The notes: generated by a model not told the origin, from the letters alone. A stretch of DNA of 64,000 nucleotides from an uncultured Micavibrio sp. (GCA_964351195.1 CAYGNI010000001.1:5575-69574), one strand, 5' to 3'; positions 40,566-58,745 are shown, counted from the first letter of the stretch. Numbers and translations are program-made.

Positions 40566-40651
40566 ATTGACTAAATTCTGTCGTAAAGTTTTTAGAGTGT
40601 CTCTTTTTAGATGAGGGTAGTGGTTAAATGTTTTTGAAAAAAAGACTGAAA
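40566..40651 (-). mobile_element. Non-coding scar of an IS6-family transposase 3' region
   Basis: Two blocks, aaattctgtcg and tggttaaatgtttttgaaaaaaagactgaa, match 42080-42090 and 42110-42142 inside the truncated transposase gene. Indels destroy the frame. Confidence 0.5.
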
Positions 40652-40684
40652 GGTAGGGGTTGTAGTCAGCCGATAACTATTCTC
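40652..40684 (+). repeat. IS6-like terminal repeat, copy A
   Basis: GGTAGGGGTTGTAGTCAGCCGATAACTATTCTC is 30/33 identical to copy D. Confidence 0.8.
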
Positions 40685-40819
40685 TTTTCAAATTCTTATC
40701 TTCATCAATAACGGCGTGCGGTTAATACGCGCCTTTTCACTGCACAATATGCGTCGAATATTCTTGCCAATACGGTGAATGAGTGATATATTCTCCTTAT
40801 AATATGCGGTGAATTGATC

Positions 40820-41932
40820 ATGACTTATATACACGAATTAAAAAAATGGCCGGACTTTTACTGGGACAGCGCTCATCTATCCACTCTCTTGGCAGAAGTT
40901 CGTCACGCCCAAGGGCGGTTGCTTGGCAAAATGGAAGCGCTTGGATTTCCCCTAAGAGCCGAAGCCATTTTAGAAACTCTTACTTTGGACACACTAAAAT
41001 CCTCTGAAATAGAAGGCGAAATCCTTGATAAAGAGCAAGTACGCTCATCTATCGCGCGTAGACTTGGTATGGATATCGCCGGGCTTATTCCGTCTGAGCG
41101 CCATATCGATGGCGTTGTGGAAATGATACTTGATGCAACCCAAAACTTCGCGAAGCCATTAACCGATAAACGCCTATATGGATGGCATGCCGCTTTGTTT
41201 CCTACAGGCTATAGCGGCATTCATAAAATCACAGTGGCCGCCTATAGAAATGATGAGCAAGGCCCTATGCAGGTTATTTCCGGTTCATACGGACGTGAAA
41301 AAATACACTACGAGGCACCAAATGCCGCGCATTTAAAAAAGGAAATGGATCATTTTCTCATCTGGTTTGAAAAGAAAAGCGATACCGATGCAGTACTGAA
41401 GGCTGCACTTGCTCATTTATGGTTTGTTACTATTCACCCTTTTGATGATGGGAATGGCCGTATCGCCCGCGCTATATCTGATATGGCGCTTGCACGCTCG
41501 GAAAAAACAACCCAGCGTTTCTACAGCATGTCGGCACAAATCAAAATCGAACACAAAGAATATTACGACATATTGGAGCGAACCCAAAAAGGCGATCTGG
41601 ATATCACTGCATGGCAATGGTGGTTTTTAGAATGTCTGTGGCGAGCTATAAATCAGGCAGAGGAAACTCTTGCCTCAATTTTATTCAAGGCAAAATTTTG
41701 GGAAATGTATAAAGAGGTATCCATCAATGAGCGTCAGCGCACTATGCTAAATAAACTGCTGGACGGGTTTGAGGGCAAACTCACTTCTTCTAAATGGGCC
41801 AAAATAACCAAATGCTCTCAAGATACGGCATTGCGTGATATTACGCATCTTCTGGAGCACAGCATATTAATTAAAGATCCAGGGGGAAGCCGCAGCACGA
41901 GTTATAGCCTCAACGATCTTAATAACGTTTAA
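40820..41932 (+). CDS. Fic-family protein (AMPylase/adenylyltransferase-type) with C-terminal winged-helix region
   Basis: Fic active-site motif HPFDDGNGRIARA, N-terminal inhibitory-helix-type motif SSEIEG, and an N-terminal WPDFYWD segment. Confidence 0.88.
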   Translation: MTYIHELKKWPDFYWDSAHLSTLLAEVRHAQGRLLGKMEALGFPLRAEAILETLTLDTLKSSEIEGEILDKEQVRSSIARRLGMDIAGLIPSERHIDGVVEMILDATQNFAKPLTDKRLYGWHAALFPTGYSGIHKITVAAYRNDEQGPMQVISGSYGREKIHYEAPNAAHLKKEMDHFLIWFEKKSDTDAVLKAALAHLWFVTIHPFDDGNGRIARAISDMALARSEKTTQRFYSMSAQIKIEHKEYYDILERTQKGDLDITAWQWWFLECLWRAINQAEETLASILFKAKFWEMYKEVSINERQRTMLNKLLDGFEGKLTSSKWAKITKCSQDTALRDITHLLEHSILIKDPGGSRSTSYSLNDLNNV

Positions 41933-41973
41933 TACAAAACAGAGAACAGTTAGTGAAGACTGCTTGGTAAAAT

Positions 41974-42006
41974 GGCAGTGCTGTCAGACAAACGATAACT
42001 TTTCTC
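41974..42006 (+). repeat. IS6-like terminal repeat, copy B (terminal inverted repeat of the truncated IS)
   Basis: GGCAGTGCTGTCAGACAAACGATAACTTTTCTC starts 54 nt outside the transposase stop codon. Its first 14 nt resemble the IS26 IR GGCACTGTTGCAAA (recalled from memory). Confidence 0.7.
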
Positions 42007-57580: not shown

Positions 57581-57889
57581 AATTGGCTAAAACAGTTAAA
57601 TTTTTTACTTTAAAGTTAAGCAAAACCTCGCCCTATGGTATACAAAATGTGTTAAGGAGAAATAGCTTTTGTTAAACCGTTCAAGACAAAAATTCTCTTT
57701 TAATACTCTTACAGATAGAAAAGTATGCGAAAGGTCACGCGGAAAAATAGTCACTTGAGATAATGGGTGAGAAACGGGGTGGTTTTGGCATTCTCTGCGC
57801 GTTTCGGACAGGGGCATATCGGCAAAGCGCTCGGATCGCTGGGCTTCAGCGCGTAAATTCTCTACACCTGGTGGATTGGAAGGCTGAAT

Positions 57890-57922
57890 GGCAGGGGTTG
57901 TAGTCTGCCTATAACTATTCTC
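57890..57922 (+). repeat. IS6-like terminal repeat, copy D
   Basis: GGCAGGGGTTGTAGTCTGCCTATAACTATTCTC. Its last 8 nt overlap the stop codon and C-terminus of the AlkB-like gene. Confidence 0.8.
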
Positions 57923-58517
57923 CATTCAGCACCATCGTCCGGAATGTAAGTGAAACACGGCGTGATCTATCCAACTTAAATCCATTTACGATGTCAGACT
58001 TACGTCCGGGGATTGCATGTGTCCATTCGTAGCGAGCTGCGCCGGATAACACGATCAAGCTACGCCCTTGCAGGTATAGCTCCTCATTACGGCTATCACG
58101 CACATTCTGAAATTTCATCATTGCACCTGAGCCAAGCGTAAGAGAAGCTATCGTCCCGCCAAAACACGGCACACAGTCCACATGAGCGGAGATACCCTGC
58201 CCCGGTTCATATTCATTGACGATGGCTTGATCGGGTGCGGTCTGAAAGATGTCCTGATCATGTAAACGCTTAGCTATCGGCTCTATCCATTCCGGTAATT
58301 CAGCGAGATACGCATCATTTGTAACCGCACGCGCTTTATAGTCATACTTGTAACCGTAGTGCTGTACGCGGCGTTTGAGATCGGTTAACCAAGTGTTTTG
58401 ATCAATGGATTCTAGCAGTGCGCGCTCTTCATCTAGCGTAATGAACTCAGGAACGTATAACAGCCCCTCTATGTCAAGAGCTTGTCGATACTCCATATCA
58501 AGCAGCAAGTTAATCAT
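57915..58517 (-). CDS. AlkB-like 2-oxoglutarate/Fe(II)-dependent dioxygenase
   Basis: HxD...H facial triad (GISAHVD, WTHAIP) and the 2OG-binding RVSLTFR. Confidence 0.8.
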   Translation of the reverse strand: MINLLLDMEYRQALDIEGLLYVPEFITLDEERALLESIDQNTWLTDLKRRVQHYGYKYDYKARAVTNDAYLAELPEWIEPIAKRLHDQDIFQTAPDQAIVNEYEPGQGISAHVDCVPCFGGTIASLTLGSGAMMKFQNVRDSRNEELYLQGRSLIVLSGAARYEWTHAIPGRKSDIVNGFKLDRSRRVSLTFRTMVLNGE

Positions 58518-58712
58518 TTCACCCTAAATACCCACGTTGAAAAACGTTTATGATCGTCTATCGCACTTTCATCGTCATTTGTATTCGTATGAGAATATCC
58601 GGGAAATATTGACGGGTCAAAAGGATAACAGTACGATATTTCTCAAAGAATATATTCCTATATCCTATTCAATTTGCTAAGAAAAAAGTTATCGACGACT
58701 GATTGGTTAAGT

Positions 58713-58745
58713 GGCAGGTGCAGCGTTCTGAAGATAAATTGCCTC
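58713..58745 (+). repeat. IS6-like terminal repeat, copy E (most diverged)
   Basis: GGCAGGTGCAGCGTTCTGAAGATAAATTGCCTC is ~20/33 identical to copy D. Its left flank, gttatcgacgactgattggttaagt, parallels the copy B flank gttagtgaagactgcttggtaaaat. Confidence 0.5.

Follow-up and report, generated by a model that had tools for sequence, protein, structure and literature searches.

Cis-mobilizable elements (CIMEs) are integrase-less remnants of integrative elements that have accreted in tandem at the 3′ end of a tRNA gene or another target gene (PMC5704250). The tycheposons of Prochlorococcus are cargo-carrying integrative elements at tRNA genes, and build islands by repeated integration at a single site. 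Along the island they leave behind degenerate elements, pieces of integrases and partial tRNAs, and a minority of them use large serine recombinases (bioRxiv 10.1101/2020.12.28.424599). In the IS6 family of insertion sequences (ISs), just two MITEs (miniature transposable elements with inverted repeats) are known, each with both IS ends (PMC7986276). We analyzed a stretch of 64,000 nt from an uncultured Micavibrio sp. (GCA_964351195.1, CAYGNI010000001.1:5575-69574; the whole stretch is called the window, and positions are counted from its first letter), in which copies of a 33-nt repeat separate the gene modules of an accessory region. An initial annotation had read these copies as IS6/IS26-like terminal repeats. 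We conclude that the region probably arose when small integrase-less modules accreted in tandem at a tRNA-Trp attachment site and then decayed, with copies of an IS6-family element lodged at the site core. The repeat is best read as an attachment-site scar that looks like the end of an IS.

The reference copy of the 33-mer is site D (57890-57922, + strand). Copies in the same orientation start at 40652 (A), 49506 (C), 41974 (B) and 58713 (E) and are identical to D at 30/33, 27/33, 22/33 and 20/33 positions, respectively, which reproduces the positions and identities of the initial annotation. Only A and D lie within three mismatches of the 33-mer in the window, and none is expected by chance. 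Matches of at least 22/33 are expected 0.15 times per shuffled window, so copy B is real. Matches of at least 20/33 are expected 2.25 times, and the 33-mer of E alone is therefore not above chance. Site A (40652-40684, +; GGTAGGGGTTGTAGTCAGCCGATAACTATTCTC) marks the boundary between the core, with its TetR/RND operon, and a Fic module, and was also matched by a model made from foreign sites (nhmmer E = 9e-8).

Sites A and D consist of this right arm only. In B, C and E, a left arm (AGAGAAAAGTTAGCG.GACTG with an 8-11-nt spacer) sits just left of the right arm. A left-arm profile made solely from eight foreign loci was run on the window and matched E (58681-58717, E = 2.4e-9), B (41941-41978, E = 3.4e-6) and C (49474-49510, E = 2.3e-4). 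On the basis of this match, E is a true unit despite its chance-level 33-mer. Positions 12-33 of the 33-mer recur, inverted, as the left arm, and thus the full unit is a 66-nt imperfect palindrome. All three units lie on the + strand. Unit B comprises a left arm and spacer (AGAGAACAGTTAGTGAAGACTG and CTTGGTAAAAT, 41941-41973) followed by a right half at 41974-42006; unit C (49474-49538) has its left arm and spacer at 49474-49505 and its right arm at 49506-49538; unit E (58681-58724) has its left arm and spacer at 58681-58712, followed by TGGCAGGTGCAGC at 58712-58724. Unit C forms the best hairpin among the units of the window (DNA fold −11.2 kcal/mol, z = −3.5), and B and E are degenerate. The inverted copy proposed at 49470-49503 exists (nhmmer E = 7e-4) but is partial, covering model positions 8-33 with 15/33 ungapped matches.

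All units of the window share one orientation, and each lies in an intergenic gap between gene modules according to the Pfam/open reading frame (ORF) annotation, as had been claimed. No copy was found in the core at 1-40000 with nhmmer or the left-arm profile. A sixth unit, B2, follows ~165 nt past position 64000. It is a second IS6 right end, continued by 220 nt or more of the transposase gene, and was seen on two independent metagenome contigs; it is present in the loci L001, L002 and L010. Beyond the first ~220 nt, B2 is 100% identical to B (a 1.3-kb 'duplication'). This identity may reflect an assembly collapse; only the distinct 220 nt are trusted.

We found ~60 related sites in Micavibrio-like genomes and metagenomes. 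A pattern covering both site types yielded 32 loci from metagenome-assembled genomes labelled Micavibrio, Alphaproteobacteria, Pseudobdellovibrionaceae or Bdellovibrionales, and a second pattern yielded 14 metagenome loci. A strict A/C/D-type pattern returned nothing from the GTDB genomes, indicating that no close relative has been sequenced, and the site was not found in phage and plasmid collections. All sites begin with (T)GGCAG, and the DNA to the right of the site differs at nearly every one. The left flanks are of three kinds: a left arm ('P-type'), a flank designated X, and unrelated sequence that nevertheless ends in AAAT. The X flank is conserved over 75-190 nt and carries a GC hairpin, AAATTCTCT and GGACTGAAT. 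In the window it precedes site D as non-coding DNA with the GC hairpin, AAATTCTCT and GGCTGAAT (57736-57889, +), recognized by its homology to tRNA-Trp-adjacent DNA of relatives. Ten loci contain two to four sites within 8 kb, and neighboring sites in one locus were co-oriented in 14 of 15 pairs. The palindromic units are dyad-symmetric about the T|G step before GGCAG, with GACTG and CAGTC each 11 nt away in six of ten.

The repeat is linked to tRNA-Trp. The 33-mer begins with TGGCAG(GGG), the reverse complement of the last 6-9 bases of tRNA-Trp; site D, with its preceding T, begins TGGCAGGGG, the reverse complement of the last 9 nt. Both C and D match the tRNA-Trp end of relatives at 9/9 positions; for D, 7 of 1000 shuffles reach this match. 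In unit E, TGGCAGGTGCAGC is a 12/13 copy of the tRNA-Trp 3′ end and not a normal right arm (z = 4.4; 2/1000 shuffles). As predicted, the site arrays of L029, L062 and L072 end at an intact tRNA-Trp gene on their right side and on the opposite strand. A protein search with the serine recombinase fragments beside X in L043, L040 and L012 led to the loci L076-L082. X directly adjoins TGGCAGGGG and the body of tRNA-Trp(CCA) in L076/L077/L079, L082 and L029. Window positions 57736-57897 align with the DNA that borders the tRNA in L082 (76% identity across 162 nt, E = 3e-30), and past 57897 the sequences diverge, into the tRNA body in L082 and into the right arm and alkB in the window. The X flank of the window also matches L076 (5e-15), L029 (1e-3), L043 and L041. 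In L062, a two-site array of 1386 nt is flanked by a perfect 32-nt direct repeat, TGCTGAATAAGCGTGAAAGTAATGAATGGCAG, which ends in GGCAG. Its right copy adjoins tRNA-Trp and overlaps the tRNA end, which argues for site-specific integration and not for transposition, with a crossover at or left of +5 that keeps the tRNA intact.

Modules are shared between genomes. A Doc/Fic toxin-antitoxin module of ~0.7 kb recurs in L026, L050 and L073, each time bounded by a right arm and a left arm, but its neighbors differ on both sides. The alkB segment of the window is 82.7% identical to that of L026 over 709 nt, and in both the stop codon falls inside the right arm. In L026, a palindromic unit precedes alkB, and upstream of alkB the gene for a BMT5-like rRNA methyltransferase is intact (797-1423). 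In the window, a 118-nt remnant of the 3′ end of the methyltransferase gene is left (58518-58635), and the deletion ends 45 nt before unit E. The L022 array occupies the same place in the chromosome as that of the window, with a TetR/RND operon on its left; the TetR homologue has the position relative to the site that it has at site A. These data support the view that modules travel as units between genomes. They likewise support stepwise, modular assembly, which the initial annotation had suggested, because the AlkB and Doc/Fic modules recur elsewhere between the same sites with different neighbors. Contigs from five samples were all collinear with the window, with no alternative arrangement among these assembled contigs, and the arrangement is fixed in the sampled population.

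From these features we infer the recombination mechanism. The 33-mer would be the element-side arm of an attachment site whose core is the tRNA-Trp 3′ end, AAAT|GGCAG(GGG), the reverse complement of (CCC)CTGCCA and TTT, and the crossover would lie in or just left of GGCAG. Small modules, each with this arm at its left end, would have been integrated one after another at the tRNA-Trp site, giving an array of one orientation that starts at the TetR/RND operon and heads for a tRNA-Trp gene expected past the right edge of the window. A palindromic P-type unit (~66 nt) would be a junction in which the right end of the previous module (left arm and spacer) meets the right arm of the next, and would equal the site carried by a circular module. 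The X-type site D would join tRNA-Trp-adjoining DNA to a module arm, and unit E would retain a 13-nt stump of the tRNA end. Since no recombinase gene is present, the modules of the window would be integrase-less remnants comparable to CIMEs. Module 3, which starts with an HTH_17 excisionase-like gene after C and has an X end before D, resembles an 8.4-kb element whose integrase is gone. The IS6 copies (the scar at A, B and B2) would have come later, exactly at the site core and in one orientation.

We characterized the IS6-family element itself. The ORF at 42028-42360 (−) encodes a DDE_Tnp_IS240 fragment (Pfam, E = 2e-14), and the truncated transposase gene extends over 42028-42378 (−), corresponding to residues ~116-229 of 231 (Pfam, tblastn). 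An intact IS in L027 is ~805 bp long, ends in GGCAGTGGTGTCAGACAAACGCTAACTATTCTC on the right and GGGCGTCTTGTCAGATTAAAATG on the left, and encodes a transposase of 231 aa with 72% identity to the window gene (tblastn). The right half of unit B (41974-42006, +) is the right inverted repeat of an element of this family: its terminal 30 nt also close the transposase gene in L010, L011, L012, L022, L027 and L036. Copy B is a genuine IS6 right end, as the initial annotation had recognized. Copies whose flanks are unrelated place the IS tip at (A)GTGCTGTCAGAC. Thus, the first three bases (GGC) of the B 33-mer are flank, and the tip in unit B is probably at 41977 (AGTGCTGTCAGAC...). Relatives of this IS in Ruegeria and Mesorhizobium have tips GGT..TGTCAGA at both ends. 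Directly left of A, a frame-destroyed scar of the transposase 3′ region ends in GACTGAA (40566-40651, −); it aligns with the transposase 3′ region of window B, L027, B2 and L012 with z = 8-14 against shuffles, in agreement with the earlier description, and its extension further left toward an inverted repeat is weak (z = 2.2). Complete IS6 copies do not stand at each boundary: transposase sequence was found at B (truncated), B2 and A (the 86-nt scar), and none at C, D and E.

Several side observations concern this element. Database homologues of its transposase are nearly all fragments of 96-193 aa, and IS6 copies interrupt or adjoin the X-side serine recombinase gene in four lineages. Distant IS6 right ends on Ruegeria and Mesorhizobium plasmids (L051 1255-1300 and L052 1255-1300) hold ATTCGAAC ~10 nt from the tip. 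This tRNA T-loop-like motif may be a matter of chance or may reflect a tRNA-end-like character of the right end in this IS6 clade. In L043 (1995-2040), a classical IS26-like IS6 element with the inverted repeat GGTAGTGTCGCAAAGTTTAA is preceded by GGAGAAAAGTT, and seems to have inserted into a left arm.

Candidate recombinases were found next to related sites. Large serine recombinase genes read toward X in L040, L041, L043 (= L064, L071), L076-L081 and L082, and a small resolvase gene does so in L019 (= L065); a serine recombinase stands directly beside X in at least six lineages. In L076-L082 the order is DUF2924, a serine recombinase split into Resolvase and Recombinase ORFs, and X. This association came from inspection of X-type sites and the protein search, not from enrichment of neighbor genes, which around 34 sites showed no recurrent recombinase in the top families. 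We tentatively propose that the recombinase is a serine recombinase, with the large DUF2924-linked enzyme beside X|tRNA-Trp in relatives as the leading candidate. A tyrosine integrase outside the genes seen is possible but doubtful, some other enzyme is more doubtful still, and the IS6 transposase is an unlikely candidate.

Several points weigh against tandem accretion at tRNA-Trp. No tRNA gene was found in the window, which ends inside the array, so that we infer the tRNA-Trp end of this array and do not see it. Just 6-9 nt of the repeat match the tRNA, and the rest (positions 4-9 and 20-33) is identical to the IS6 right end, a homology that this reading leaves unexplained. Pfam and further searches revealed no recombinase gene in the window besides the IS6 remnant. 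All X-side serine recombinase genes are split or truncated, and their homologues are all fragments of 136-396 aa. Serine integrases normally do not reuse attL and attR, as tandem accretion would need. The collinearity of the contigs from the five samples gives no sign of current mobility. Site pairs that share the right-hand module are more alike at positions 22-33 (0.90) than at 6-12 (0.55), and the right arm that comes next has its outer part in common among three toxin-antitoxin modules. In this small sample of shared flanks, such patterns of arm similarity hint at crossovers inside the arm, contrary to the L062 repeat. X may belong to the native chromosome or may be an element's right end.

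The initial annotation explained the region by IS26-type cointegrate or translocatable-unit activity. In a refined form of that explanation, the right arms would be orphan IS6 right ends on which the transposase acts in trans by end-targeted conservative strand exchange; circles of one end and a passenger would insert beside existing ends, giving same-orientation arrays, and the tRNA-Trp end would be hit as a look-alike of the IS tip. By sequence comparison, the common right arm is clearly homologous to the IS6 right end: the site consensus GGCAGTGCTTGCAGTCTGTCGCTAACTTTTCTC is identical to it at positions 1-9 and 20-33 (24/30 overall), with AGTGCT and CGCTAACTTTTCTC at equal spacing. In six or more cases (B, B2, L012, L022, L027 and L041), an IS6 right end takes the place of the right arm to the exact base, each time after a left arm or X flank. 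In L036, L048 and L022, the distance from the IS6 left end to a site on its right is 14, 14 and 75 nt. IS6 copies and fragments near sites have the orientation of the site in eight of eight cases, A adjoins the IS6 scar, and IS6 is the sole recombinase-type gene in the window. One model published for targeted IS26 integration needs cleavage at a single end and sequence identity there (PMC7986276). However, no transposase gene was found on the inner (right) side of ~55 non-B-type sites. The IS core TGTCAGAC is replaced by TGCAGTC or TGTAGTC in the common right arm, so that TGTCAGA, the sole block common to both ends of the intact IS and its relatives, is missing from the common sites. The repeat has these 24/30 nt in common with the right end of the intact L027 element, whose left end (GGGCGTCTTGTCAGATTAAAATG) does not contain the inner motif CGCTAACTTTTCTC. 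No matching 8-mers that would represent 8-bp target duplications flank the IS in L027 or L036 or the units, although their absence also fits conservative events. The IS tip does not include the AAAT conserved before GGCAG, and the arrays end at tRNA-Trp. The L062 repeat, with its precisely preserved tRNA-Trp, fits site-specific integration. We therefore give an IS26-type origin a slim chance. The homology may have arisen if the IS6 transposase treats the site as an IS end through end-targeted conservative exchange (PMC7986276), if the recombinase of the site takes the IS end for a module arm, or if the arm descended from an IS6 end.

A further candidate is an integron-like capture platform. 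Here a resident recombinase beside X|tRNA-Trp would capture and shuffle small circular cassettes with 66-nt sites, and the window would be an orphan array comparable to attC clusters without an integrase. Cassettes as small as 0.7 kb carry no integrase of their own and are shared between genomes in varied order, the arrays are unidirectional, and palindromic units fold (z = −3 to −7) into a stem and, beyond an internal region of mismatches, a short stem with a loop. A serine recombinase reads toward X at the start of the array in L040 and L043 and toward an empty site in L076 and L082. Against this, no tyrosine IntI-type gene was seen in the window, and no tyrosine recombinase was among the families shared by 141 ORFs around foreign sites. 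The unit GTTAGCG...CGCTAAC has the reverse order of the attC boxes RYYYAAC...GTTRRRY, more than half of the sites lack a left arm, and gene orientation is mixed within modules. Modules of 7-8 kb with an excisionase-like gene resemble decayed islands, and all recombinase genes seen are damaged. The integron-like explanation thus has a small probability. A related and still improbable idea, to which we give a little more weight, is that the Micavibrio-like lineage runs an integron-like capture with a serine recombinase beside a primary site at the tRNA-Trp 3′ end, small integrase-less cassettes with 66-nt dyad-symmetric sites and a resident IS6. The IS6 right end may then mimic the arm or have given rise to it, so that the IS enters arrays at the crossover point. 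Alphaproteobacteria, as a class, are not known to have integrons. The repeat could also be a dispersed palindrome of the repetitive extragenic palindromic (REP) or MITE kind that marks intergenic regions and is a hot spot for IS6 insertion, with no role in module assembly. Many sites indeed lie between ordinary genes (two-component systems, efflux pumps, P-type ATPases), some units are good hairpins, and contigs often break at sites, which suggests many copies per genome. We regard this as very improbable, given that the 40-kb core of the window has no copy, the sites are strongly clustered and co-oriented, the units lack flanking target duplications, module and site move together between genomes, and the link to tRNA-Trp holds.

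Some narrower readings were tried and rejected. The units are not attC sites in the strict sense, because the boxes are in the wrong order and the units read ...AAGTTAGCG...CGCTAACTT... on either strand. A structured RNA was rejected: neither the window nor 13 loci gave an Rfam match, RNAalifold found no consensus structure for X, and single-sequence folds of X showed just the GC hairpin. X is not a decayed IS6 transposase 3′ region (z ~0-2 against shuffles, vs 8-14 for the scar at A), and the ORF at 57605-57925 showed no similarity to a transposase. The common right arm is not the end of the classical IS26-like element of L043, whose inverted repeat GGTAGTGTCGCAAAGTTTAA is unrelated. Xer/dif-like, hammerhead and promoter readings of the unit, made by eye, fitted poorly.

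The G+C content is 40-48% from 40 kb onward vs ~50% in the flanking 34-40 kb. The core at 1-40000 carries polA, rplT, pheST, RND efflux pumps and two-component systems. In a low-GC part of this core (40-43%), a 1.3-kb stretch at 19978-21284 has no ORF of at least 70 aa and no Rfam match; it is located between CHASE/PAS sensor kinase and hybrid kinase genes. Module 1 is a Fic/DUF4172 gene (40820-41932, +; Pfam). Module 2 (42379-49473, no single strand; Pfam) is made up of regulator and stress-type genes and encodes response regulators, YceI, an ECF sigma factor, and CsbD-like, EF-hand, CBS and OmpA-like proteins. Module 3 (49603-57580, +; Pfam) encodes the HTH_17 (AlpA/excisionase-like) protein, a 1629-aa protein without a Pfam match and an 835-aa ResIII helicase, and is a candidate defence-type module. 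The start of the helicase gene overlaps the stop of the gene for the 1629-aa protein. Module 4 (57915-58635, −) consists of alkB (57915-58517; Pfam 2OG-FeII_Oxy_2), whose stop codon falls inside site D, and the last 118 nt of the methyltransferase gene. Module 5 (58830-64000, +) encodes proteins of 211, 277 and more than 1111 aa and runs past the end of the window. It had been labelled a vWA module, and none of these three proteins has a Pfam match, to vWA or otherwise. Elsewhere, a palindromic CTGT...ACAG motif, such as TTCACTGTTTAACAGTG or CACTGT-N13-ACAGGG, was seen 10-40 nt right of several sites (L026 ~5200-5235, L044 ~1735-1770, L028 ~4280-4318, L040 585-625 and L070 ~2530-2560). It looks like an SOS-box-like operator carried at the left end of some modules.

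If tandem accretion at tRNA-Trp is correct, a predatory/epibiotic lineage would put together its accessory region by stacking very small modules without integrases at a single tRNA gene, with toxin-antitoxin pairs, Fic, AlkB and defence-like genes as cargo exchanged between genera. This mode would be intermediate between genomic-island accretion and integron cassette capture, and would use a site that has its arm in common with an IS. Two enzymes, the serine recombinase linked to DUF2924 and the IS6 transposase, would be candidates to act on a substrate pair made up of the 66-nt unit and X|tRNA-Trp. In annotation, short look-alikes of IS ends at module boundaries do not necessarily imply IS26-type activity.

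The array is best read as an unusual variant of known genomic-island building. As in CIME accretion (PMC5704250), most modules have no integration genes, the target gene is intact at one end (as seen in the relatives L029, L062 and L072 and at the empty site in L076 and L082), newer arrivals are expected beside it, and the direct repeats contain its 3′ end (9/9 in C and D and 12/13 in E vs tRNA-Trp of relatives). The array differs in that modules are as small as 0.7-1.3 kb, that the conserved part of the repeat is a 33-nt element arm with merely 6-13 nt of tRNA repeated, and that the junctions of small modules are 66-nt dyad-symmetric units. The candidate enzyme also differs, being a serine recombinase, as does the homology of the arm to an IS6 end. 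Compared with tycheposons, the host lineage and the target tRNA are different, the array has as its boundary repeat a conserved arm of non-tRNA sequence, and the window retains neither replication nor integrase genes. The array shares with IS26 pseudo-compound transposons and translocatable units (PMC7986276) the same-orientation repeats that bound passengers, a real IS6-family element, homology of the repeat to the IS right end, and co-orientation of IS copies with the repeats. However, its repeats are 33-66 nt long and not whole 0.8-kb IS copies, they contain neither the inverted-repeat core nor a transposase gene, and the arrays are anchored at a tRNA gene. Chromosomal integrons and orphan attC clusters similarly consist of small unidirectional cassettes, often toxin-antitoxin modules, and between the cassettes stand imperfect palindromes of ~60-70 nt, which resemble one another within a lineage. 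The present array differs from them in having no IntI gene, boxes reversed relative to attC, many half-sites and anchoring at tRNA-Trp.

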